From the IMG/VR virus record IMGVR_UViG_3300025520_000001, positions 1 to 64,000 of that record: DNA of 64,000 nt. One strand, given 5' to 3'. Of the stretch, positions 15,559-44,453 are shown one piece after another. The first letter of the stretch is position 1. Each line of letters opens with the position of its first letter. A program made the translations under genes and the position numbers. The stretch is from a virus. The notes below the pieces were generated by a model that saw only the letters and a program-made list of their open reading frames with translations, ran no database searches and had not been told where the DNA came from.

Positions 15559-15840
15559 TCAATCGCACTTAATTGCGATGAACTCACTGATATAGTTAGT
15601 GAGCACCATGGCTTCCCAGTCTACGCCGTCTTCCTGCGCAATGAAGATTCGGCACTGGCCACTACTGGGCAGGGTACCAAACGTCTGTTCATAATTCCTG
15701 ATATCGTCAAAGTTAAGACCATCGAGTTCTAACGAGAACTGCTCTTCGTCCTCGAAGGAGAACTTCTCGCATTGCTTCCAGTGTGAATGACGAACACCAG
15801 AGAGACGCTCCAATTCCATCTTGATGCTATCGGAACCCAT
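15559..15840 (-). CDS. hypothetical protein
   Basis: ORF track 93 aa; 1-nt overlap with the ligase gene. Confidence 0.6.
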   Translation of the reverse strand: MGSDSIKMELERLSGVRHSHWKQCEKFSFEDEEQFSLELDGLNFDDIRNYEQTFGTLPSSGQCRIFIAQEDGVDWEAMVLTNYISEFIAIKCD

Positions 15841-16943
15841 TAGACATCCTCCCGAAAACGAAGGCCCACGGGGAACCGCGGGACGTTATTCTTGCCGGTA
15901 TAGCCCTGGAACTGGACTGTGAGCTGACGACCAACGGCCAGACTCGGCTTCTTCCAGAACTTCGACAGTTCTTCCTGATCGCCTTTCATCTTGGCTTTAA
16001 ACCGATCCCCATCAGCCGTGACACAAACAAAGATCGCTTTGCCAGCCAACTTGCCACGCCCTTCTTCCACATCCACGATCTTAAATTCTGCATCTTGAAA
16101 CTCCTTGATCTTGAGAAGGTCAGTGGAGCGCTTGTTGACGTACAAGCCGGCCGCATTGCGAACCATCGCGCCCTCGTACCCCTTCTTGAGACAAGCTTCG
16201 AAGAACTCAACTAGCTCGTCTTCATCAGCCATCTCCTTCGTCTCTACTCTCACAAGCGGATCGGAAAAATTCATGTTGGCGAGCTGTTTATTGCGCTGCT
16301 TGAAGCCACCCGAACCAGCTATATCGTAGATGTGGTATTCAACCACCTCATAGCCTTCCTTGGGCTCCGGATTCCGGATGAAGCTCGTAAGCTCTTCGAA
16401 CTTGCTTTTGTAGGCGTGATTGTAGAGCTCGCCGTCAAGGACGATGTCCTCCTTAAAATCGAGTTCCTCGATGGCCTTGTTGATGTGAGGAAGACCAGTG
16501 ATGGGTTTGCGAGTACGCGACCAGAGCGTGCACTTGCCATTCTTAACCACAGCAACACAGCGATGTCCATCGAACTTAGGCTGAGCGAACGCCGGGTACA
16601 CGATCTTATCGCCGTGCTCGTCAAACCGCTTAGCGAGCATAGGTTCGATACCACCAGTAATCAGGTCATCTACCTCTCGAGCTTCAGCCGCATCAAGCGA
16701 CTTGACATAGCCCTTCTTGAGCTTCTTCTCCCACTGGCTGGTGGCTTCAGCCTCAGCCTGCTGAGTGGGTGTAGTCGCATTGCTGCGACCTTGATTCTTG
16801 CCTTCCTTGATGACATCCTTCGTTTCTTGGATCTTGCCGCCAACCTGACCCCAACGGGTAATGATGACGTTGTCCTCTGTTGAGATCTCCCATTCCTGCT
16901 GGGCACTGGTAGAGGACAACTTGTATAGCTTAGGAAGCTTCAC
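15840..16943 (-). CDS. lig: ATP-dependent DNA ligase with N-terminal WGR-like domain
   Basis: 367 aa. Motif I AQPKFDGHRC, III LDGELY, IV EGAMVRN, V DLLKIKEF. N-terminus ITRWGQVGGKIQ...SQWEKKLKKGY looks like a WGR domain. Confidence 0.9.
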   Translation of the reverse strand: MKLPKLYKLSSTSAQQEWEISTEDNVIITRWGQVGGKIQETKDVIKEGKNQGRSNATTPTQQAEAEATSQWEKKLKKGYVKSLDAAEAREVDDLITGGIEPMLAKRFDEHGDKIVYPAFAQPKFDGHRCVAVVKNGKCTLWSRTRKPITGLPHINKAIEELDFKEDIVLDGELYNHAYKSKFEELTSFIRNPEPKEGYEVVEYHIYDIAGSGGFKQRNKQLANMNFSDPLVRVETKEMADEDELVEFFEACLKKGYEGAMVRNAAGLYVNKRSTDLLKIKEFQDAEFKIVDVEEGRGKLAGKAIFVCVTADGDRFKAKMKGDQEELSKFWKKPSLAVGRQLTVQFQGYTGKNNVPRFPVGLRFREDV

Positions 16944-26532: not shown

Positions 26533-26964
26533 TTACATTGTTACTAACGCAACCGCGTGTAACAATTTATTGAGGAAGCTAGCAATGGGATCAAACGCCA
26601 TTGCTAAGAGTAGCCAGTAAGGTGCGTACTTCAGGTTAATGAAGCCCATAGGAGTCCAATGGCTTACACCGTAATCCCAAGGAACTCTACCAATAATCAT
26701 CTTCAAAACCCAGGCACTCAGTGCTTCAGCGCCATAGATAATAGGGACATAGATGAAGGCCTTGAGATAGAAAGGCCACGTGATTGCGTCAGAGATTGTC
26801 TCTAGGATAAGAGCCGTGAACCCGTATACCAAACACATCCATAAATAGGTCTTAGCGGTCGCGTCCCAATGCTTTCTGATTAAGGAACCAATGCCAGTAA
26901 AGAAGACCTCAATGAGTAAACCTAAACACCCATAGATGATAGCCTTCTGCAATAAGATCAGCAT
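26533..26964 (-). CDS. polytopic membrane protein
   Basis: 143 aa, about 4 TM helices. ATG begins 2 nt after the tRNA-Met discriminator. Confidence 0.7.
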   Translation of the reverse strand: MLILLQKAIIYGCLGLLIEVFFTGIGSLIRKHWDATAKTYLWMCLVYGFTALILETISDAITWPFYLKAFIYVPIIYGAEALSAWVLKMIIGRVPWDYGVSHWTPMGFINLKYAPYWLLLAMAFDPIASFLNKLLHAVALVTM

Positions 26965-26965
26965 G

Positions 26966-27038
26966 TAGCGGACGTCGGAGTCGAACCGACTGTTCTCAGG
27001 TTATGAGCCTGCTGTGTAAACCGTTTCACTCGCCCGCT
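26966..27038 (-). tRNA. tRNA-Met: tRNA-Met/Ile2-type (anticodon CAU)
   Basis: Minus-sense AGCGGGC..GTG-AAACGGTTTA-CAC..GCAGG-CTCATAA-CCTGA..GTCGGTTCGACTCCGAC-GTCCGCT. 3-bp D-stem; one mismatch in the anticodon stem. Confidence 0.8.
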
Positions 27039-27055
27039 GCAACTATTCTACTAAG

Positions 27056-27334
27056 TTATCCGTCAATGCCCGGAATTCCGTCTAGGAGGGGAATGGCTCT
27101 GATGCCATAGTCAGTACAGTCCCCATCCATATACATGTCGGGGTCATAGAGATTCTTACGCTTAGGAGCAGCATAGCGACCGCCCTTCTCTTTAGCAATA
27201 GCCACAGAATCTTCCTTAGCAAGCCGTGCGTGGTCTAGAGCTCTATCTTTATCTTGATAGGCGCAAACCGCCCACTCTGCATAATCTTCATATTCGCCTG
27301 AAGACCCAAACACAACCCAAACATTGACGCTCAT
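27056..27334 (-). CDS. hypothetical protein
   Basis: ORF track 92 aa. Confidence 0.65.
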   Translation of the reverse strand: MSVNVWVVFGSSGEYEDYAEWAVCAYQDKDRALDHARLAKEDSVAIAKEKGGRYAAPKRKNLYDPDMYMDGDCTDYGIRAIPLLDGIPGIDG

Positions 27335-27483
27335 TACCCGTCCTCGTCTAGATCGTCGCTGCCCTCGTCCTCTTCATCCTCGGGCAGCCAGTCTTCTAAG
27401 TCAGACCTATCCTGAAGGCAATCAAAGCAGATACCCCCATCGTTGCAATGTCTGTAATCTCCACACTCTTCACACTTCTGCAT
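27334..27483 (-). CDS. small acidic Cys-rich protein (49 aa)
   Basis: Hand-translated MQKCEECGDYRHCNDGGICFDCLQDRSDLEDWLPEDEEDEGSDDLDEDG. ATGA and TAATG overlaps. Confidence 0.45.
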   Translation of the reverse strand: MQKCEECGDYRHCNDGGICFDCLQDRSDLEDWLPEDEEDEGSDDLDEDG

Positions 27484-27935
27484 CATGACTCGTTATTGTC
27501 CTCTAATACCGTAGACAGGGCCTTGTTTGCTTCGTATTGATCAGCAATCACCTGTATTCCTTCCATATCTACTTTTATACCATCATGCGGTCGGCTTGGA
27601 GCATGCGGCAACCACATACCATCAATCTGATTTTTTTCGTTATAGAAAAAAGAAATAGCTAGAGACACTCTCAGAGATGAGAGTTGCTCTACTGTTTCAG
27701 CCATCAGATTTTTGAGTTGCTCTTGCGTTCGCATCAAACCTAGCCGCGCACTTTCTATCTTGCGTTCGAGCTCGAACTCGGTCCATTTCTTATGTCTACC
27801 GCTGGCTAAGAGCTTTCGGTAATAGGATGCCTTCCATGCTGCACGATCGTTTACTTGATGTGCAGCTCTCCCTCGTAAAATCAGGACACAAAGCTTACCT
27901 AGCCTTTCCTGCCTATCGCTTTCATCATTGGTCAT
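27483..27935 (-). CDS. hypothetical protein
   Basis: ORF track 150 aa. Confidence 0.65.
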   Translation of the reverse strand: MTNDESDRQERLGKLCVLILRGRAAHQVNDRAAWKASYYRKLLASGRHKKWTEFELERKIESARLGLMRTQEQLKNLMAETVEQLSSLRVSLAISFFYNEKNQIDGMWLPHAPSRPHDGIKVDMEGIQVIADQYEANKALSTVLEDNNES

Positions 27936-28415
27936 TTAGACGTACCAGGCTGGCTGGCCCCTTCCCTTGGCCCAACGGGCAATCTTTCGCTTCTCTCCGC
28001 AGTAATAGGCGCGATAGGCGACCACCGGGTCAGCATTCTTGTACTGATCAGGCATGCACTGGGCAAACGGCGTCATTGGTCCGCTGGTAATCGGAGGAGG
28101 ATTAGCACTGAGCCAGTCAATAACTTCCTGGCATTTATGCACTTTTTTATATCGTTCGGTGTATTCAGTGCTCAAAGCTTGAGCGTGCTTTAAGAGCCAC
28201 TGCCAGTTTGCTGTAGATTCTCGAGTCCACTTAGCGCTTGGGTGATTATAGTGGGTACGCTTATATGGTGCTAGTCCGGGGTCGTACGGCGAGCACAACA
28301 GCTGTACACTTTCTAGTGTCATCTTAACTACATGCTTGTCGGATTGATACTGCGCCGCTAGCACAGGGTCAAGGTCTAGTACGAATATGTTCACAGACCT
28401 TTTGCCCCGCGCCAC
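27936..28415 (-). CDS. conserved hypothetical protein (possibly pyrimidine-dimer-glycosylase-like family, unverified)
   Basis: 159 aa. LDLDPVLAAQYQSDKHVVKMTLESVQLL...THYNHPSAKW...EYTERYKKVH recalls a widespread phage/giant-virus family. Confidence 0.55.
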   Translation of the reverse strand: MARGKRSVNIFVLDLDPVLAAQYQSDKHVVKMTLESVQLLCSPYDPGLAPYKRTHYNHPSAKWTRESTANWQWLLKHAQALSTEYTERYKKVHKCQEVIDWLSANPPPITSGPMTPFAQCMPDQYKNADPVVAYRAYYCGEKRKIARWAKGRGQPAWYV

Positions 28416-28534
28416 AAATTCTTGCTAGCGCGCTTGTATGCATCATAACTGATAAGCTTTAATGTCGTTATCACGACCAAGAACGGGTACACGCACAGCG
28501 GGTTAGTTGTAGACCTGGTTTTATCATGCGCCAT
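28391..28534 (-). CDS. LxLIS mini-protein family member
   Basis: ATG at 28534 in ORF 28391..28597. MAHDKTRSTTNPLCVYPFLVVITTLKLISYDAYKRASKNLW... Confidence 0.4.
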   Translation of the reverse strand: MAHDKTRSTTNPLCVYPFLVVITTLKLISYDAYKRASKNLWRGAKGL

Positions 28535-28838
28535 TGTTACTTTTTTGCTGACGATTCTTAAACAGCTCCCATGGCCCAATTTCATTAGGTTCGTCACTTA
28601 GACCGATGGCGTTTTTATCTGTATACGGAAGCGCGGAATTGTGCCAATAGGCTTCATCCTCTTCGCGATACACCTTGATTTCATACCATTCGCCATCTGC
28701 GGCAAACGCGGTGCAGTTGAGTTCCGTATCGTCAATGGCTGCTTGGATGGCGTTTCGTAGGTTCTCAAGTGCTTCCTTGTTGCCCACAATAAAGGCATGA
28801 TCGTGATTATAGACTTGTGCGTAGATATGAAGTTTCAT
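28524..28838 (-). CDS. hypothetical protein
   Basis: ORF track 104 aa. Confidence 0.65.
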   Translation of the reverse strand: MKLHIYAQVYNHDHAFIVGNKEALENLRNAIQAAIDDTELNCTAFAADGEWYEIKVYREEDEAYWHNSALPYTDKNAIGLSDEPNEIGPWELFKNRQQKSNNGA

Positions 28839-28850
28839 AGTTATTTTTCT

Positions 28851-28988
28851 TCATGAAGCGAGCCAGATAATCCTATGTGTGCCGGCGTAGGCAGAATGCG
28901 TGATGAGATTTAGGTTGTACAAGTGAAAGGCAAACATCATTGTTAATATTTTACCATCGCTTGTTGCTTTACCTTCAAAGTAAGTCAT
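28851..28988 (-). CDS. LxLIS mini-protein family member (45 aa)
   Basis: Hand-translated MTYFEGKATSDGKILTMMFAFHLYNLNLITHSAYAGTHRIIWLAS. ATGA overlap with the HNH stop. Confidence 0.4.
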   Translation of the reverse strand: MTYFEGKATSDGKILTMMFAFHLYNLNLITHSAYAGTHRIIWLAS

Positions 28989-29365
28989 AAGTACTTGAGT
29001 TGATTGCCCTTCTCAAAGTTATGCTTGTAACACATGGGCTGACGGTTCTCGATGCGATCACTACCGCCACGTGACTTAGGAAGCTTGTGATCGGATGTAA
29101 GCATAACCTCTTCGCCGTTCAGTTTGCAGTAAAGATTCAAGTGGTACTTGTCAAACGGACCACAAGTTCTTTCGATGGCAAAGTACTGCCCATGGACGGC
29201 ACAGTCAGGCACGCAACACTTCAGGCCATACACATGATAAGTGCGAAGACGATTGCCAACAGTGGAGCACTCAATGCCTTCGTACTCGAAAGGCTTGCCC
29301 TCTGCGATGGCCTTCATTACCTTGTCAACAGGAACAGTGCCAAGTCGCTCGTACATTTTTACCAC
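28985..29365 (-). CDS. HNH endonuclease
   Basis: 126 aa. TSDHKLPKSRGGSDRIENRQPMCYKHNFEKGN. Confidence 0.85.
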   Translation of the reverse strand: MVKMYERLGTVPVDKVMKAIAEGKPFEYEGIECSTVGNRLRTYHVYGLKCCVPDCAVHGQYFAIERTCGPFDKYHLNLYCKLNGEEVMLTSDHKLPKSRGGSDRIENRQPMCYKHNFEKGNQLKYL

Positions 29366-29760
29366 GACACCCTCAACTTCTCGTGATAATCCTTACCCAG
29401 AAAGTCATAGAAGTACTGGAGGATTTCCTTCTTCCAGAGTTCAGTGGAGTCACTGTTCATGTAATAGTCCCACTCAGGAAGGTGCAAGAAGCCACCGTTA
29501 CTGATCTGGTCATTGCAGTCGCAAATCCAGTGCCAAAAGTCCTGGTATGGAATACTGGGATCGAAGGGTTGCTTATGCCTGCCCGCGTAGTCCCGGAAGT
29601 CCTTGCCATGCAGCTTTTCGAGGTAGTCTGCGACTTCATTGTAGTCCCAGTACTCGATGACGTGCTTCATCGGCGGAGTCGGCGTGCTTGCAACGGTGGT
29701 ATTCACCTTCTTGCTCACTTTCTTGTTTGTCTTCTTAGAAATTACTCTCTTCTTCGCCAC
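29359..29760 (-). CDS. hypothetical protein
   Basis: ORF track 133 aa, basic N-terminus. Confidence 0.7.
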   Translation of the reverse strand: MAKKRVISKKTNKKVSKKVNTTVASTPTPPMKHVIEYWDYNEVADYLEKLHGKDFRDYAGRHKQPFDPSIPYQDFWHWICDCNDQISNGGFLHLPEWDYYMNSDSTELWKKEILQYFYDFLGKDYHEKLRVSW

Positions 29761-30011
29761 GGTCCCCTCGTATTGCTATCTGAATTCCTGCGTAACGCAT
29801 CTAAGTTGAAATTGTTCTGCATCTTAATGTAGTCGGCATCACCTTGGATTGGCCGCGACATCAGTGAACCTACAATCCAGAAATAGAACAACCAGCCTGT
29901 TGCCGAGAAGAAGATGATTAAGATCTTCGACACGTCGCAAGCATACATTATCGCCGCAACAACCGCATCGAGGATTGTACTGTAGACAAGTATTCGAACC
30001 ATAGAGTGCAC
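29742..30011 (-). CDS. small membrane protein
   Basis: ORF track 89 aa (GTG start; ATG at 30002). Two TM helices. Confidence 0.5.
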   Translation of the reverse strand: MHSMVRILVYSTILDAVVAAIMYACDVSKILIIFFSATGWLFYFWIVGSLMSRPIQGDADYIKMQNNFNLDALRRNSDSNTRGPWRRRE

Positions 30012-30026
30012 ACCCTTTCATACACT

Positions 30027-30038
30027 CTTATATTCGGA
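30027..30038 (-). promoter_or_regulatory. promoter-like box TCCGAATATAAG
   Basis: Minus-sense CCTTATCCGAATATAAGAGTG lies about 15-25 nt upstream of the 30011/30002 start. Confidence 0.45.
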
Positions 30039-30045
30039 TAAGGAA

Positions 30046-30288
30046 TTATCTGAAATCTTTGGGTTGCCAGGTTTGGAGTTCTTTAGTCTCAACCATCACA
30101 ACCACATACGGATCCACGGGCTCGTAGGTACCCAAGAGAAACGCATTATTCTCGAGCAAATTCTTCACGTTGCGCCGCTCAGTCCAAACGTCGCCCGTCA
30201 TCGACCATCCTCCGCCACTGTAGCTCTTCTTACGGAAGTATTCCCCAGTTAAAGTATTCTTAATCATGTAGCCGATCATAGCAACCAT
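30046..30288 (-). CDS. hypothetical protein
   Basis: ORF track 80 aa. Confidence 0.6.
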   Translation of the reverse strand: MVAMIGYMIKNTLTGEYFRKKSYSGGGWSMTGDVWTERRNVKNLLENNAFLLGTYEPVDPYVVVMVETKELQTWQPKDFR

Positions 30289-30448
30289 CCTTTAGAATTG
30301 GTTCGTTAATGACTTTACCGGGCAGAGTTTCTAACTCGCGTAAAAGAATAAGCGCTTCGCGGGGCGTGAGGCCTTCGCCTCGACGAACGCGCTTTTTAAT
30401 TTCTTCAAGACGTCTGGCCTTTGCTTGTGTTTTAGCTTGTTTGCTCAT
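30260..30448 (-). CDS. basic hypothetical protein
   Basis: ORF track 62 aa. ATG begins 2 nt after the tRNA-Leu(CAA) discriminator. Confidence 0.55.
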   Translation of the reverse strand: MSKQAKTQAKARRLEEIKKRVRRGEGLTPREALILLRELETLPGKVINEPILKDGCYDRLHD

Positions 30449-30449
30449 G

Positions 30450-30532
30450 TACCCATGGCCAGAGTCGAACTGGCACGTCCGTGAGAACAGCGGTTTTTGA
30501 GACCGCCGCGTTTACCATTCCGCCACATGGGC
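30450..30532 (-). tRNA. tRNA-Leu: tRNA-Leu (anticodon CAA), type II
   Basis: GCCCATG..GCGGAATGGTAAACGC..GCGGT-CTCAAAA-ACCGC, long variable arm, GCCAGTTCGACTCTGGC-CATGGGT. Confidence 0.9.
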
Positions 30533-30684
30533 AACTCCCCACTACATTTATCCGGGTTAGTGGGCAACCCGTGGAACACCGGAGCAGCTTGCCGTTATAG
30601 GACGTCACCCTGATTACTCAGGAACCTCCTAAGTACCGCTTGCACGAGGTTGCGCTCTCCATGGCGCAGGCCGGTGTGATTCTG

Positions 30685-30837
30685 TCAATCTGTATTTACG
30701 GTGGCTGTTTTACATCTACTGCATCTAGGCCACGCACCTTCAAACTTGTAATAATAAGGTGCTTGTTCTTTGTGGCCAATCTTCTGGCACAAATGAAACA
30801 TCAAGTCTCTGTAAAGCCATTTGATTTGGTTAATCAT
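30685..30837 (-). CDS. small hypothetical protein (50 aa)
   Basis: Hand-translated MINQIKWLYRDLMFHLCQKIGHKEQAPYYYKFEGAWPRCSRCKTATVNTD. ATGA overlap with the upstream stop. Confidence 0.4.
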   Translation of the reverse strand: MINQIKWLYRDLMFHLCQKIGHKEQAPYYYKFEGAWPRCSRCKTATVNTD

Positions 30838-31067
30838 AGTTTAGAGATTACATCTTTAATGCTCCAAGCCTTGCCGCGGATACATCTTCGTTCAGCATAG
30901 AGTACATTCGTATTGGGGTCACGAGTGACATTGCCAAACGCACTGATGTACTCTGTCCCGTCTCTTCGCCTGTAAATACAGCGGTTCTTCTCCAATCGAG
31001 TCTCGGAGTATACGCCGTTGATATACCAGCGGACCTCAACATCTTCGCGACGATTTGCTTTTGCCAT
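30834..31067 (-). CDS. hypothetical protein
   Basis: ORF track 77 aa. Confidence 0.6.
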   Translation of the reverse strand: MAKANRREDVEVRWYINGVYSETRLEKNRCIYRRRDGTEYISAFGNVTRDPNTNVLYAERRCIRGKAWSIKDVISKL

Positions 31068-31075
31068 GAGTTGCC

Positions 31076-31324
31076 TTACGGCCAGTACTTTGGAGGCCGT
31101 CTGTTCCTTCGCTCTCGACTTTCTCTTTTTCTCTTGACATTGATGCCATTGAAGGCGCTTTTGTACCGATCATCCTGCATCTCATATGCACTCGGGCATT
31201 GATCGCAAGTAGAACCATCTGGCAGAGTTCCGTACCCCGCGTTGCAGCAGTTGTTGCCACATTTGCCACAAACGACCATTATTACTTCGCAGTGGCTGCA
31301 TATTTCCCAATGATGATTGCTCAT
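31076..31324 (-). CDS. Cys-rich zinc-binding protein
   Basis: 82 aa. CSHCEVIMVVCGKCGNNCCN...CDQC. ATG begins 2 nt after the upstream tRNA. Confidence 0.6.
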   Translation of the reverse strand: MSNHHWEICSHCEVIMVVCGKCGNNCCNAGYGTLPDGSTCDQCPSAYEMQDDRYKSAFNGINVKRKRESRERRNRRPPKYWP

Positions 31325-31325
31325 G

Positions 31326-31411
31326 AGCCCGGAGTGAGATTCGAACTCACGATGTCCAGTAAAGGAGGCAGATTACAAATCTGCTGCTCTCGGCCACTAA
31401 GCGACCCGGGC
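31326..31411 (-). tRNA. type II tRNA with atypical anticodon loop UUUGUAA (UGU in the canonical register)
   Basis: GCCCGGG..GCTTAGTGGCCGAGAGC-A-GCAGA-TTTGTAA-TCTGC, 17-nt variable arm, GTGAGTTCGAATCTCAC-TCCGGGC-T. Anticodon stem identical to tRNA-Tyr at 43373. Confidence 0.65.
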
Positions 31412-31413
31412 AT

Positions 31414-31527
31414 TTACTTAATCAATAAGTTATAAAGTACACCGAGTTCGGCGTAGCTTCTTTTTCGAAGAAGCCCAATCTTCCAAAGTAGGCATAAGAA
31501 ATTCCACTTTTCAATTATGCTGCTCAT
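31414..31527 (-). CDS. LxL mini-protein family candidate (37 aa)
   Basis: Hand-translated MSSIIEKWNFLCLLWKIGLLRKRSYAELGVLYNLLIK. Stop lies 2 nt from the tRNA 5' end. Contains CTACGCCGAAC. Confidence 0.3.
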   Translation of the reverse strand: MSSIIEKWNFLCLLWKIGLLRKRSYAELGVLYNLLIK

Positions 31528-31547
31528 GGCTCTTTGTGCCATGCCTT

Positions 31548-31745
31548 TTAACTGACGTCCCAATCAACCACATATTCCAACATGATCATCTTGTTGGTGG
31601 TAGAGATCGGTTGATTAGAAATACGGCTAAATGACCCAACTTCCAGTACTTCTTCATTGCCGTTGGCCCATCGCATCTTCATCTTCTGTCCAATGCTCAC
31701 AGTCTTATTCCACTGTACATATATTAGTTTCTTTGCTGTGCTCAT
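31548..31745 (-). CDS. hypothetical protein
   Basis: ORF track 65 aa. Confidence 0.55.
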   Translation of the reverse strand: MSTAKKLIYVQWNKTVSIGQKMKMRWANGNEEVLEVGSFSRISNQPISTTNKMIMLEYVVDWDVS

Positions 31746-31897
31746 TAGCCCACTATATGCTTGTCATTCTTGTGTTCAGAAATCATTTGCCACATGAGCC
31801 GCAAGAAAGTACTTTCTATGTAGAGATACCCACTCCAATAAGCACACCAACAAGCCTCAGGACTAATCTCGGCTGGCCTGGATTTCCAAATTTTCAT
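31745..31897 (-). CDS. small hypothetical protein (50 aa)
   Basis: ATG at 31897 (MKIWKSRPAEI...) in ORF 31745..31975. Begins 2 nt after the tRNA-Ala discriminator. Confidence 0.3.
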   Translation of the reverse strand: MKIWKSRPAEISPEACWCAYWSGYLYIESTFLRLMWQMISEHKNDKHIVG

Positions 31898-31898
31898 A

Positions 31899-31971
31899 TG
31901 GAGCTTAAGGGGTTCGAACCCTTGACCTTCGGCTTGCAAAGCCGCTGCTCTCCCAACTGAGCTAAAGCCCC
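31899..31971 (-). tRNA. tRNA-Ala: tRNA-Ala (anticodon UGC)
   Basis: GGGGCTT-TA-GCTCAGTTGGGAGAGC-A-GCGGC-TTTGCAA-GCCGA-AGGTC-AAGGGTTCGAACCCCTT-AAGCTCC-A, with G3:U70. Confidence 0.92.
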
Positions 31972-34006: not shown

Positions 34007-34402
34007 TTACTTCTTGGCAAACTTAGCGCTGAGACGCTCAAATTCCTTGCGGTCATGGTCCTCTCGGGCTTTGGTTTGTTCTATCAACTCCCACAGACGA
34101 GCTTCATACTGCGCATCAGTCTCCAAGCCTTCGACTGTGCAATACAGTTTCGCGTACTGCGAACCATAATCATCCTCGAGTTCTGTGTCCATCTTCACAT
34201 CCTCGAGTGTTTTGCCCCACTGTTCGGCAAAAGCTTTTGCCTCTCCCACCAGATCAGTCACGCGACTGATGTAGGTGGCATCGTGCCGCTGCGTAATCTC
34301 TCTGCGGGGATTTTGCTCTTTAAGAGCTTCCTGTTCTGACTTTGACAGCCATCGAAACTTTTCCGCTTGAGTATTGTAGTAGTTTTCTGTTCTGTAATAC
34401 AT
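34007..34402 (-). CDS. hypothetical protein
   Basis: ORF track 131 aa; GAGGGA RBS. Confidence 0.7.
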   Translation of the reverse strand: MYYRTENYYNTQAEKFRWLSKSEQEALKEQNPRREITQRHDATYISRVTDLVGEAKAFAEQWGKTLEDVKMDTELEDDYGSQYAKLYCTVEGLETDAQYEARLWELIEQTKAREDHDRKEFERLSAKFAKK

Positions 34403-34423: not shown

Positions 34424-34497
34424 CGCGCCCAGCAGGATTCGAACCTGCGACCCCCGACTTAGAAGGTCGGTGCTCTGTCCGGCTGAGCTATGGGCGC
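34424..34497 (-). tRNA. tRNA-Arg: tRNA-Arg (anticodon UCU)
   Basis: GCGCCCA-TA-GCTCAGCCGGACAGAGC-A-CCGAC-CTTCTAA-GTCGG-GGGTC-GCAGGTTCGAATCCTGC-TGGGCGC-G. Confidence 0.92.
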
Positions 34498-34503
34498 AGA
34501 CCT

Positions 34504-34971
34504 TCAGTACGTCCCAGCGACCCGACGCACCTTGTAGCGGCTCGGCACCTTCACTGCCGCGAGCCGAGCATCCATGCCGCGGACGGTGTGGGGCGGAACG
34601 TTGTGTACGTTGCGAGTAGCACCCACAGCCGCCGGAGTATCGACCTGCACGATCTCAACATCGTAGTCGAACGCCTCACCCAGAGCGACGTACGGTGCCA
34701 TGTCTTCCAGGTTGATGTTGGTGTTGTCCACAATGATGAGGTCAGTGTTGTTTCGCACTTCACTAAGGAACCGCTTGAGGCAAAACTTGTGCGCCTCGCC
34801 CAGCTTCGTGACGTCGAACTTGTATTCGCCCTTGTCGTCCACGAAGAAGTCGTCGGCGGAAACAATAATCGAGCGAACGCCATTCTCCATAGCTTCAAGC
34901 TGCAGCTTCTTGGCCAGAGTCGACTTGCCAGCACCAGAGATACCGCGCATCACCTTCACTTGCTTGAGCAT
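34504..34971 (-). CDS. P-loop kinase, polynucleotide-kinase-like (AAA_33 type)
   Basis: 155 aa. MRGISGAGKSTLAKKL, IIVDNTNINLEDM, ATRNVHNVPPHTVRGM parallel the T4 Pnk kinase-domain motifs. Confidence 0.75.
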   Translation of the reverse strand: MLKQVKVMRGISGAGKSTLAKKLQLEAMENGVRSIIVSADDFFVDDKGEYKFDVTKLGEAHKFCLKRFLSEVRNNTDLIIVDNTNINLEDMAPYVALGEAFDYDVEIVQVDTPAAVGATRNVHNVPPHTVRGMDARLAAVKVPSRYKVRRVAGTY

Positions 34972-40617: not shown

Positions 40618-40959
40618 TTAAGACGCCTTACCCTTATGGTTAGTAGGAGAGAACTCACTCACTGTTTCGAACTGAACAGCGGGCGTGGTAGACAAGTGTC
40701 CGCCGAGCTGGCATGACTTGCCCTTGTGGAGACCAGAGTTGTTCTTCCAGAACTCCATGTACTTTTCGCGGTCGCTATTGGATTTGAACTTGAGGATTGT
40801 GGCCTGCGACTGCTTGCCATCTGCACTTTGCAGACCTACATACTTGATGGCTGTTTCCTCTGCGCACTCATGGCACTCATTAATCTTGCCGCCAGCACGC
40901 AGCTTTTCGGGTGAACGGGCGTCGAACTCAATCTCACAATGTACACAGACTCTTTTCAC
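40618..40959 (-). CDS. zinc-ribbon hypothetical protein
   Basis: 113 aa, GTG start with AGGAG upstream. CVHCEIEF...CHEC. Confidence 0.6.
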   Translation of the reverse strand: MKRVCVHCEIEFDARSPEKLRAGGKINECHECAEETAIKYVGLQSADGKQSQATILKFKSNSDREKYMEFWKNNSGLHKGKSCQLGGHLSTTPAVQFETVSEFSPTNHKGKAS

Positions 40960-40976: not shown

Positions 40977-41049
40977 TAGGCCCACCAGGAGTCGAACCCG
41001 GAACCCGTCGCTTATATGGCGACCGCTCTGCCAGTTGAGCTATAGGCCC
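40977..41049 (-). tRNA. tRNA-Ile-like (anticodon UAU) with A at position 33
   Basis: GGGCCTA-TA-GCTCAACTGGCAGAGC-G-GTCGC-CATATAA-GCGAC-GGGTT-CCGGGTTCGACTCCTGG-TGGGCCT-A. Otherwise canonical. Confidence 0.7.
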
Positions 41050-41323: not shown

Positions 41324-41977
41324 TTAGATGTCCAGAACCACCGGAAGACCGGGGTTTGCGGAGCTGTTCCAATGGTGGATAGGACCGACAGAGCAGTTGT
41401 GTAGGTTGGTCTGCCCGTTATTAACAGTCCATGTTCCGGTATCTTCGTGGATGTGGCCGTAGAAGACGTGCTTTGGCTTCTTCTGCTCGAGAGCGCGAAG
41501 CAGTTCACTACATCCAACTCGTTCGCCATGTACTGTCAAGTCACCATAGCCCAAAGGCGGCCCATGGACCAACAATACATCTAAGTCGTTTGGAATCTTA
41601 TTCCAGTGAACATGTAAGTTTCCACGGTGGACGTTGAAAGCCCAGTCGTGGAACCACGGCTGCCAAGGCGACCCGTAGAACTTCTTGCCTTCAATTTCGC
41701 AGCCAGAGTCCATGAGATAAGTACAGCCGGCATCCTGCAGAGCCTTTACTGCCTCTGGTACCAGAGCTCCATACTTGCTGTCTTTGTCCAGACAGAAATC
41801 GTGGTTGCCGGCGATGATGACCTTGTGCTTGTGCGACTGTGTTTTCAACCAGGCTGCAACCTGTTTGATTTGTGTCAAAGTGCCACTGCCCGTAAGATCT
41901 CCTGCAACAACCAGCACGTCACCGTCAGGAACATGAACCTGCTGATTATGCACGTCTGCAATCGCTATGATACGCAT
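41324..41977 (-). CDS. calcineurin-like metallophosphoesterase
   Basis: 217 aa. IIAIADVHN, VVAGDLTGSG, IIAGNHD, LLVHGPP, FYGHIHE. Confidence 0.85.
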   Translation of the reverse strand: MRIIAIADVHNQQVHVPDGDVLVVAGDLTGSGTLTQIKQVAAWLKTQSHKHKVIIAGNHDFCLDKDSKYGALVPEAVKALQDAGCTYLMDSGCEIEGKKFYGSPWQPWFHDWAFNVHRGNLHVHWNKIPNDLDVLLVHGPPLGYGDLTVHGERVGCSELLRALEQKKPKHVFYGHIHEDTGTWTVNNGQTNLHNCSVGPIHHWNSSANPGLPVVLDI

Positions 41978-42527: not shown

Positions 42528-42544
42528 GACCAATGCTTTCTTTG

Positions 42545-42644
42545 TGGAGAAGCCGGGACTCGAACCCGGTTCAATCGCCGCTAACTATGCCGTAACCCAG
42601 CATTGCCCTTTCTGCGAGGCGATTACAGCGCTGGGAGCTTCCCC
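42545..42644 (-). ncRNA. 100-nt tRNA-like RNA with G3:U70 acceptor and non-tRNA core
   Basis: GGGGAAG...CCGGGTTCGAGTCCCGG-CTTCTCC-A. Acceptor and T-arm are canonical. The 59-nt core has a 7-bp stem AATCGCC/GGCGATT and a possible pseudoknot CCCAGC/GCTGGG. Confidence 0.45.
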
Positions 42645-42652
42645 ATTACTAC

Positions 42653-42985
42653 TTACTTCTCGAACGGCAGACCACAACCGTATTCCTTCTCCTTCAGCCT
42701 GGTCAGTGTGTTCTGCACGACTGTCTTGTCGACTGGTGACAACTTCTTTTCATCGAGCATTGCGATGTTGTAGCAGAGCCCACGCAGCCTCGCGATGACC
42801 TTGAGATATTTCCTCTCAGTCTTTGACTTCGCCTTCTTCTTGGACTTTTTATGAGTCTTCGCTTCACATTTGCTACACACTTTACCGCTATTGCCAATGA
42901 AATACTTGGTCCCGACTTGTTTGCTACACACCGAGCAGTAGGGTGCTTCCCAGCCCTTGGTGTCAAAAACAGTTACTTTAATCAA
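42653..42985 (-). CDS. zinc-ribbon, Lys-rich hypothetical protein
   Basis: 110 aa. CSVCSKQ...CSKCEAK. Confidence 0.65.
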   Translation of the reverse strand: MIKVTVFDTKGWEAPYCSVCSKQVGTKYFIGNSGKVCSKCEAKTHKKSKKKAKSKTERKYLKVIARLRGLCYNIAMLDEKKLSPVDKTVVQNTLTRLKEKEYGCGLPFEK

Positions 42986-44369: not shown

Positions 44370-44453
44370 TACACCGAGAGGGACTCGAACCCTCACAGAC
44401 CGAAGTCCCGCGGATTTTAAGTCCGCTGCGTCTACCGATTCCGCCATCAGTGC
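44370..44453 (-). tRNA. tRNA-Leu: tRNA-Leu (anticodon UAA), type II
   Basis: GCACTGA..GCGGAATCGGTAGACGC-A-GCGGA-CTTAAAA-TCCGC, long variable arm, GAGGGTTCGAGTCCCTC-TCGGTGT-A. Confidence 0.9.

Follow-up and report, generated by a model that had tools for sequence, protein, structure and literature searches.

The locus considered here raises the question of how a gene can be translated when its start codon lies two nucleotides beyond the end of a tRNA. In positions 1 to 64,000 of the IMG/VR virus record IMGVR_UViG_3300025520_000001, the 64,000-nucleotide stretch that was analysed (the window), four tRNA genes end one nucleotide before the ATG of an open reading frame (ORF1 to ORF4). They are tRNA-Met, tRNA-Leu(CAA), a tRNA with a long variable arm and the anticodon UGU, and tRNA-Ala. 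The window is part of a 172.5-kb contig of an uncultured phage (Logan SRR6212578_6315), whose gene content includes a head protease, ribonucleotide reductase, ThyX and DNA ligase. It is argued below, from sequence comparison, that excision of these tRNAs probably releases leaderless mRNAs, which would be translated without a Shine-Dalgarno (SD) sequence.

By ARAGORN, the window holds 10 tRNA genes and one tRNA-like 'tmRNA', every one on the minus strand; CCA is encoded in none of the ten tRNAs. Rfam confirmed nine of the ten (RF00005, cut-off 29 bits) and placed their 3′ ends at the discriminator base, and the Leu-CAA, long-arm and Ala tRNAs exceed the cut-off. The tRNA-Met scores under the gathering cut-off and is called by ARAGORN only; its acceptor stem has seven of seven pairs, and its orthologs in four related phages (L279, L281, L288 and L287) have compensatory changes in the T-stem. 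Read on the minus strand, the order discriminator, one base, ATG is found at four of the ten tRNAs (Table 1), and the remaining six have no ATG at this spacing. Among the latter, the Arg, Ile and Leu(UAA) tRNAs are followed by GAGGGA or AGGAG and by start codons at 11–21 nt. The first-pass annotation, made from the letters of the window, had described both the four one-nucleotide junctions and the normal ribosome-binding sites that follow these three other tRNAs, and both descriptions are confirmed. On their 5′ sides the tRNAs are separated from the preceding genes by 17 nt (Met), 37 nt (Ala) and 152 nt (Leu-CAA). Upstream of the long-arm tRNA the gap is 136 nt, or 2 nt if an uncalled 49-codon ORF (31414-31563) is real.

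The 17 nt preceding each abutting ATG lie inside the tRNA fold, in strands of the acceptor stem and T-arm, and contain no SD sequence. The SD duplex energies upstream of the four codons are −0.5 to −2.2 kcal/mol, with −0.5 kcal/mol for ORF1, which bears out the earlier remark that there is no room for such a sequence. In the same window a strong SD (−6 kcal/mol or better) precedes 51 of 95 predicted genes, compared to 11% of random sites. A promoter within each tRNA gene, with transcription starting at the A of the ATG, would yield leaderless transcripts directly, and phages do make leaderless transcripts of the primary kind, lambda cI being an example. However, the sequence at the −10 positions is G+C-rich and belongs to the acceptor stem and T-arm, an internal promoter would have to be present in each of four different tRNAs, and a promoter scan of the window found no sigma-70-like site ending within the four abutting tRNAs. 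Such internal promoters are considered extremely improbable. The sequences upstream of the tRNAs showed no promoter motif in common, and promoter- and terminator-like sites were not in excess in the window scan; genes and tRNAs are densely packed on one strand.

Background rates were taken from a scan of IMG/VR that used the D-arm and T-arm as anchors and did not select for downstream sequence; it gave 119 loci with 518 distinct tRNAs. A second IMG/VR scan, for the junction pattern itself, covers only the matches listed and was not used for the background. An ATG at a 1-nt spacer follows 4 of the 518 background viral tRNAs; the count falls to 2 of 518 when the ATG must also open an ORF of 40 codons or more. 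For the window the binomial probability of at least 4 in 10 against 4/518 is 7e-7. Even given a 'CA' trailer, TG comes next in three of six window tRNAs (P = 0.004). That four junctions of 1 nt are far beyond chance is thus confirmed, as the first-pass annotation had supposed from the repeated spacing. The identity of the spacer base is another matter. C is indeed present at three of the junctions, but it also stands at +1 after the discriminator in 8 of the 11 ARAGORN calls of the window (10 tRNAs and the 'tmRNA') and at position 74 in 203 of 249 (82%) CCA-less viral tRNA genes of the unbiased sample (loci L160-L278), in which C is rare at position 75. A C in the spacer is therefore a property of such tRNA genes in general and not specific to the junctions; its retention at position 74 suggests that 3′ processing or CCA repair constrains it. 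In some lineages, such as L123 and L045, 'CA' or 'CAT' follows nearly every tRNA.

Since no CCA is encoded, each tRNA needs a cut at the discriminator and then the addition of CCA. RNase Z/BN is the canonical enzyme for such cuts, as with the CCA-less tRNAs of phage T4, and leaves a 5′-phosphate on the trailer. In the proposed mechanism the tRNA genes would be co-transcribed with the long same-strand run of small phage genes, and the CCA-less tRNAs would be cut 3′ of the discriminator before CCA is added. An RNase Z-type cut would leave a 3′-OH on the tRNA and a 5′-monophosphate on the downstream RNA. The trailer would itself be the mRNA, beginning with C-AUG or U-AUG at the four window junctions and having a leader of 0–5 nt across the family of related phages described below. 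Translation would be leaderless, by 70S/IF2-dependent initiation on a 5′-terminal AUG without SD pairing. Judging from ribosome footprints, a folded acceptor stem 2 nt away would bar the AUG from the mRNA channel of the 30S subunit until the tRNA is removed. Maturation of the tRNA and activation of the downstream message would then be a single event, as at the 3′ side of mitochondrial tRNAs. Neither a CCA-adding enzyme nor RNase Z was seen among the larger proteins of the window.

The four ORFs differ in their standing as genes. ORF1 encodes a membrane protein that matches PF06541 (ABC_trans_CmpB) with E = 2e-10 and 41.4 bits against a cut-off of 25.9; its residues 9–124 align with profile positions 4–112. 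It is a gene call on the source contig and has 67 homologs with 46–100% identity. ORF3 belongs to a widespread family of small Cys-rich proteins, with 15 homologs in IMG/VR and 22 in metagenomes. Its conserved HxW and CxxC residues are 4–12 residues from the abutting ATG, so close that a start further downstream is impossible; it was not called as a gene on the source contig. On the evidence of homology, ORF1 and ORF3 are real genes whose N-termini fit the abutting ATGs. The database match of ORF2 is to itself only, on two contigs, and its codon score exceeds that of about 97% of non-coding ORFs, which is high for a non-gene. ORF4 is doubtful as a gene. The codon-usage model, which was trained on the window, is weak for small ORFs: the clearly real ORF3 scores below zero. 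Of the four downstream ORFs in the first-pass annotation, ORF1 (Pfam match from residue 9) and ORF3 (N-termini of the homologs) are thus upheld, while ORF2 is an ORFan and ORF4 is unsupported. Folding of the 5′ coding region showed at least as much structure in the four ORFs as in other genes. The first nine bases of ORF2 and ORF3 are identical (CATGAGCAA), probably by chance. Because ORF1 and ORF3 are conserved they are presumably expressed, and cleavage-dependent leaderless translation would be the most economical way to account for this.

Related phages were found through ORF1. Megablast and tblastn against INPHARED gave no useful near relatives among cultured phages, IMG/VR scans with ORF1, ORF2 and a neighbouring gene gave no usable relatives, and a genome-collection scan with an ORF1 homolog gave no match. 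Eight syntenic relatives, on contigs of up to 174 kb and including NCBI GCA_040384205.1, were reached through homologs of ORF1. ORF1 is intact in the relatives (62–87% identity), and it abuts tRNA-Met or tRNA-Gly at 1–4 nt in five of nine genomes (Table 1). An ATG is found at a spacer of 0–1 nt after the long-arm tRNA(UGU) in four of four genomes (the window, L285, L287 and L290), and within 5 nt of tRNA-Ala in four of five, the window included; the ORFs that follow these two tRNAs are mutually unrelated between genomes. In the family as a whole, an ATG-initiated ORF of at least 40 codons begins 0–5 nt from 14 of 46 tRNAs, compared to 17 of 518 (3.3%) in the background (P = 8e-9). If the window is left out, 10 of 36 tRNAs abut such an ORF (Fisher P = 1.4e-6).

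The distances from tRNA to ORF in the family are bimodal, with 15 at 0–5 nt, none at 6–10 nt, and the others at 11–28 nt with SD sequences. Abutting ORFs begin with ATG in 14 of 15 cases, compared to 10 of 19 distal ones (P = 0.02). A weaker form of the 6–10 nt dip is seen in the unbiased phages, in which 179 tRNA-to-ORF junctions include 16 at 0–5 nt, 5 at 6–10 nt and 36 at 11–20 nt. The exact junction is not conserved in the family; abutment is. Conservation of the spacing in related phages had been proposed earlier as a check, and it is abutment that was retained, the spacing itself varying from 0 to 5 nt.

Comparison with L279 (7562-7600), L281 (182-210) and L288 (7714-7745) showed that ORF2 and the 77–80 aa gene that follows it form an indel of ~410 nt (window 30037-30449, minus strand). 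It sits exactly between tRNA-Leu(CAA) and an element, CTTATCCGAAT. In L288, tRNA-Leu(CAA) is directly followed by a tRNA-Leu(UAG), whose 5′ part this element resembles. From this placement and resemblance, a cassette was apparently inserted in a tRNA-tRNA spacer. Events of this kind could by themselves account for the junctions. Spacers in tRNA arrays are only a few bases long, so any inserted cassette would abut a tRNA 3′ end, tRNA genes may serve as conserved recombination anchors, and the ORFs could be poorly expressed, dispensable or partly spurious, with no expression logic involved. The position of the ORF2 indel next to a tRNA remnant fits this explanation, as does the fact that ORF2, ORF3 and ORF4 are variable cargo missing in relatives. 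ORF4 and several short post-tRNA ORFs of the relatives are unconserved, and 'CA(T)' trailers favour a chance CATG. Yet an inserted fragment need not start at ATG, as nearly all abutting ORFs of the family do, and the empty 6–10 nt class is not accounted for. ORF1 is well conserved in five genomes with four different abutting junctions, and abutting genes elsewhere have clear Pfam matches. An architectural by-product is thus unlikely as the explanation. It accounts for the origin of the junctions but not for translation of the conserved genes, and to that extent it is compatible with release of leaderless mRNAs by tRNA excision.

Translation could also begin on the uncleaved tRNA-mRNA precursor by SD-independent initiation, aided by S1 or by A-rich downstream sequence, with the tRNA as a stabilizing 5′ structure. 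The ORF1 homologs with leaders of 64–85 nt also have no clear SD and can apparently be started without one; the 5′ coding region of ORF2 is A/CA-rich, and about one fourth of the window genes have no strong SD. Against this, the AUG would lie 2 nt from a stable acceptor stem of 7 bp (the tRNA folds with flanks have energies of −29 to −40 kcal/mol), and a 30S subunit, which lacks helicase activity, occupies ~15 nt upstream when it initiates. A CCA-less tRNA requires a cut at the same position in any case in order to function, and the exclusive use of ATG suits leaderless initiation better. Initiation on the precursor therefore appears quite improbable.

A third route to the abutting ATG would be termination-reinitiation, in which ribosomes follow a frame through the unprocessed tRNA, stop at or just after the ATG (an ATGA overlap) and restart. 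The +1 frame is in fact open across all four window tRNAs and ends +1 to +4 from the ATG, with ATGA in three, and an ATG occurs 2 nt upstream of the long-arm tRNA, right after a TAA. These frames, on the other hand, have no SD and mostly no start upstream; there are only GTG or TTG codons within tRNA-Met and tRNA-Ala. The post hoc P of the pattern is ~0.02. Among 33 abutting junctions outside this set, ~33% have the frame open, the same as for other frames, and because the pattern is not seen there, the open +1 frame in the window is probably due to chance. Reinitiation is considered highly improbable.

Several points weigh against the release of leaderless messages through excision of tRNAs. 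Exact junctions are labile: in L281, L285 and L287 a gap of 64–85 nt separates ORF1 from tRNA-Met, and in L290 ORF1 is not preceded by a tRNA. Since these versions also have no clear SD, ORF1 may be SD-independent in any context. ORF2, ORF3 and ORF4 were absent from the relatives examined. The homologs of ORF3 elsewhere are never linked to a tRNA, and ordinary SDs precede those in L024, L027 and L030, the ones in which the starts were inspected. ORF4 had no homolog in the searches, was never called as a gene and has an ambiguous codon score. The 'CA' or 'CAT' trailers that are common in some lineages increase the chance rate of CATG. If 3′ maturation in the host were exonucleolytic and followed a downstream RNase E cut, it would destroy the message rather than release it, and a 5′-monophosphate end doubles as a decay signal.

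Unrelated contigs with several junctions of this kind were found in the pattern scan, among the matches listed, and in the unbiased sample. In L144 (37% G+C), C-ATG follows four of eight tRNAs and opens ORFs of 95–238 codons, one with a 2OG-Fe(II) oxygenase domain. In L058 (29% G+C), C-ATG is found at three junctions and a spacer of 2 nt at two others; one of its abutting genes encodes a HAD hydrolase with the DxDGT motif at residue 19, and another has a weak receiver-domain match below the cut-off (23.7 vs. 30.2 bits). In L061 a tRNA-Ala-C-ATG junction opens a gene for a DUF5522 protein, the match beginning at profile position 5. In L123 and L122 the order tRNA-Lys(UUU)-C-ATG-HNH endonuclease has been kept despite divergence of the acceptor stem and of the protein N-terminus, and further clusters occur in L215 and L203. 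The unbiased sample has the junction in 4 of 518 tRNAs, whereas non-selected tRNAs of the pattern-selected loci have it in 17 of 555 (P = 0.007); the trait thus clusters by lineage. A cultured example is the Arthrobacter phage Racecar. Its tRNA-Arg(ACG) ends ...ACAGGGC-A, and after it come a C and the ATG of gp135, annotated as a Holliday junction resolvase. The phylum of the host of Racecar makes wide use of leaderless mRNAs.

In mitochondrial tRNA punctuation, reportedly described by Ojala, Montoya and Attardi in 1981 (cited in PMC4633059), excision of tRNAs by RNase P and RNase Z defines mRNA ends and yields leaderless messages that start at AUG. In both systems tRNA genes are 0 to a few nucleotides from coding sequence. 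In contrast to mitochondria, the phage genes abut the 3′ side of the tRNA only, with upstream genes 17–152 nt away. A subset of the tRNAs is involved, the ribosomes are presumed to be bacterial, the genome otherwise uses SDs, no stop codon is completed by polyadenylation, and the tRNA cleavage is a predicted one. The likeness to mitochondria drawn in the first-pass annotation therefore holds for the 3′ side (1 nt in the window, 0–5 nt in the family) and fails for the 5′ side. Because upstream genes do not abut the 5′ ends and only some tRNAs are involved, this is not full punctuation of the mitochondrial type. Taken as a whole, the tRNA-punctuation interpretation of the first-pass annotation is partly supported: recurrence in the family and in other lineages and the preference for ATG strengthen it, and the labile junctions and the doubtful ORF4 weaken it. 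In plant mitochondria, t-elements are tRNA-shaped RNase P/Z signals that define mRNA ends; they are non-functional tRNA mimics, whereas the phage signals are bona fide tRNAs.

Full-text literature searches turned up no account of leaderless mRNAs being released from tRNAs in bacteria or phages. Leaderless mRNAs as such are established in both and include lambda cI, Tn1721 tetR and about one fourth of mycobacterial genes (PMC4633059; PMC3848588). They share with the phage ORFs an AUG at or near the 5′ end (a prediction for the phage), the lack of an SD and a strong preference for AUG. They begin at the transcription start, whereas the phage 5′ end is predicted to be processed and to bear a monophosphate. 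In E. coli, a cut by the endonuclease MazF just before AUG reportedly yields leaderless mRNAs (Vesper et al., 2011; cited in PMC3848588). There too the leaderless message arises post-transcriptionally through an endonuclease. MazF, however, is a stress toxin that cuts at ACA and leaves a 5′-OH, and the phage process would be constitutive tRNA maturation with a 5′-phosphate. Co-transcripts of tRNA and mRNA in E. coli (tufB operon; secG-leuU) are separated by RNase P, E or Z (PMC2241853; PMC2190699). These and the T4 tRNAs resemble the present case in that CCA-less phage tRNAs need 3′ trimming and CCA, and that tRNA and mRNA share a transcript; they differ in that the mRNA retains an SD leader and no start codon abuts the tRNA. 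In phage phiKZ, differential RNA-seq, which reports primary ends only, gave no leaderless phage transcripts (PMC8244752).

Table 1. Coordinates of the features discussed. The first eighteen rows are window positions; coordinates in other genomes are those of the contig or accession given. Spacers before ORF1 homologs are written on the coding strand.
Feature	Coordinates	Strand	Description
tRNA-Met(CAU)	26966..27038	-	CCA-less; discriminator A at 26966, C at 26965; ARAGORN
ORF1	26533..26964	-	143 codons; membrane protein, PF06541; junction ...GTCCGCT-A-C-ATG; A of ATG at 26964, 2 nt past discriminator
tRNA-Leu(CAA)	30450..30532	-	CCA-less; discriminator A at 30450, C at 30449; ARAGORN, Rfam 59.8 bits
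ORF2	30260..30448	-	62 codons; ORFan, A/CA-rich 5′ end, ~20 nt overlap with next gene; junction ...CATGGGT-A-C-ATG; A of ATG at 30448
Long-variable-arm tRNA, anticodon UGU	31326..31411	-	Discriminator U at 31326, C at 31325; ARAGORN, Rfam 53 bits
ORF3	31076..31324	-	82 codons; Cys-rich protein, CGKCGNNCCNxGYG family; junction ...TCCGGGC-T-C-ATG; A of ATG at 31324
tRNA-Ala(UGC)	31899..31971	-	CCA-less; discriminator A at 31899, T at 31898; ARAGORN, Rfam 68.2 bits
ORF4	31745..31897	-	50 codons; doubtful gene, stop overlaps next ATG (TAATG); junction ...AAGCTCC-A-T-ATG; A of ATG at 31897
tRNA-Arg(UCU), contrast	34424..34497	-	GAGGGA, then ATG at 21 nt (gene 34007-34402); SD energy -8.4 kcal/mol
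tRNA-Ile(UAU), contrast	40977..41049	-	AGGAG, then GTG at 17 nt (gene 40618-40959)
tRNA-Leu(UAA), contrast	44370..44453	-	C-AGGAG, then ATG at 11 nt; SD energy -6.9 kcal/mol
'tmRNA' (ARAGORN)	42544-42692	-	149 nt; tag ASQKGQCWVTA
AAA_33 kinase	34504-34971	-	
Calcineurin-like phosphoesterase	41324-41977	-	
ATP-dependent ligase	15840-16943	-	
GTGGAATTTCTTATGCCTACT	31487-31507	-	21-nt motif
CAGGGTGAG hairpin	~30610-30640	-	In 150-nt gap upstream of tRNA-Leu(CAA)
Before ORF1, window			tRNA-Met, spacer C
Before ORF1 homolog, L279, L280			tRNA-Met, spacer TT; new ATG 6 nt upstream of ancestral start
Before ORF1 homolog, L288			tRNA-Met, spacer CATT
Before ORF1 homolog, L283, L284			tRNA-Gly(GCC), spacer AAG
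Before ORF1 homolog, L289			tRNA-Gly(UCC), spacer TCT
Before ORF1 homolog, L281, L285, L287			tRNA-Met, then 64–85 nt structured spacer, no clear SD
Before ORF1 homolog, L290			No tRNA upstream
Long-arm tRNA(UGU), L285	7122-7205		
Long-arm tRNA(UGU), L287	6242-6326		
Long-arm tRNA(UGU), L290	5820-5905		
Racecar junction	95887-96473 (MN234206.2)		tRNA-Arg 95887-95960, gp135 from 95961; equals L292 10068-10654

The long-arm tRNA(UGU) is itself unusual. It has 84–86 nt, a class II shape, a Thr anticodon and discriminator U, and it has been kept in four genomes of the family; in L279 its place is taken by an ordinary 73-nt tRNA-Thr(UGU). Bacterial class II tRNAs are normally only those for Leu, Ser and Tyr, and the anticodon stem of the long-arm tRNA is identical to that of the window tRNA-Tyr. 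The ARAGORN 'tmRNA' has tRNA-like acceptor and T-arm ends but no Rfam match at the gathering threshold, and may be either a tRNA that carries an insertion or a tRNA-like RNA.

Two repeated elements occur near the tRNAs. A hairpin, (T)CC(C)TGA-N5-7-CAGGGTGAG/GTAAGTG, recurs in the spacer between tRNA-Met and ORF1 of L281 (3314-3376), L285 (9916-10000) and L287 (9921-10000) and is also present in the window. That the 64–85 nt spacer of these three phages is a decayed tRNA was not supported by ARAGORN at relaxed thresholds. The motif GTGGAATTTCTTATGCCTACT occurs once in the window and reads 'KWNFLCLL' in translations. Diverged copies lie downstream of tRNA-Ala in L279 (6197-6262 and 6331-6405), one of them overlapping the short ORF after the tRNA; another copy was seen, by eye only, downstream of tRNA-Gly(UCC). 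The TGG-N10-TGC spacing of the motif resembles sigma-54 promoters, and the motif may be non-coding, either a regulatory element or a repeat. Near the window tRNAs are genes for an AAA_33 kinase, a calcineurin-like phosphoesterase and an ATP-dependent ligase, and the relatives L279, L285 and L287-L290 have genes for the peptidyl-tRNA hydrolase PTH2. Genes of such RNA-repair and translation-rescue types amid tRNAs could form a tRNA repair or maintenance module.

These junctions bear on how small genes are recognized and expressed in phages. Gene callers miss many small genes in phage tRNA regions, as with the uncalled ORF3 and ORF4 and with ORF2, known from two contigs only, and maps of transcription start sites would overlook processed messages of this kind. 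The arrangement suggests how gene cassettes could enter tightly packed tRNA arrays and be expressed within them. On a broader reading, for which the case stands about even, phage tRNAs double as mRNA punctuation and the tRNA 3′ end is a portable, SD-free expression site for cassettes in tRNA arrays, one that several unrelated lineages, including a cultured actinobacteriophage, appear to use. The tRNA-Arg-C-AUG-Holliday junction resolvase junction of Racecar is a tractable case in culture. If release by tRNA excision is correct, it would be a third route to leaderless mRNAs, besides transcription that starts at the AUG and cleavage by a toxin, and its logic would be shared with mitochondria; the downstream gene would be expressed only upon maturation of the tRNA.

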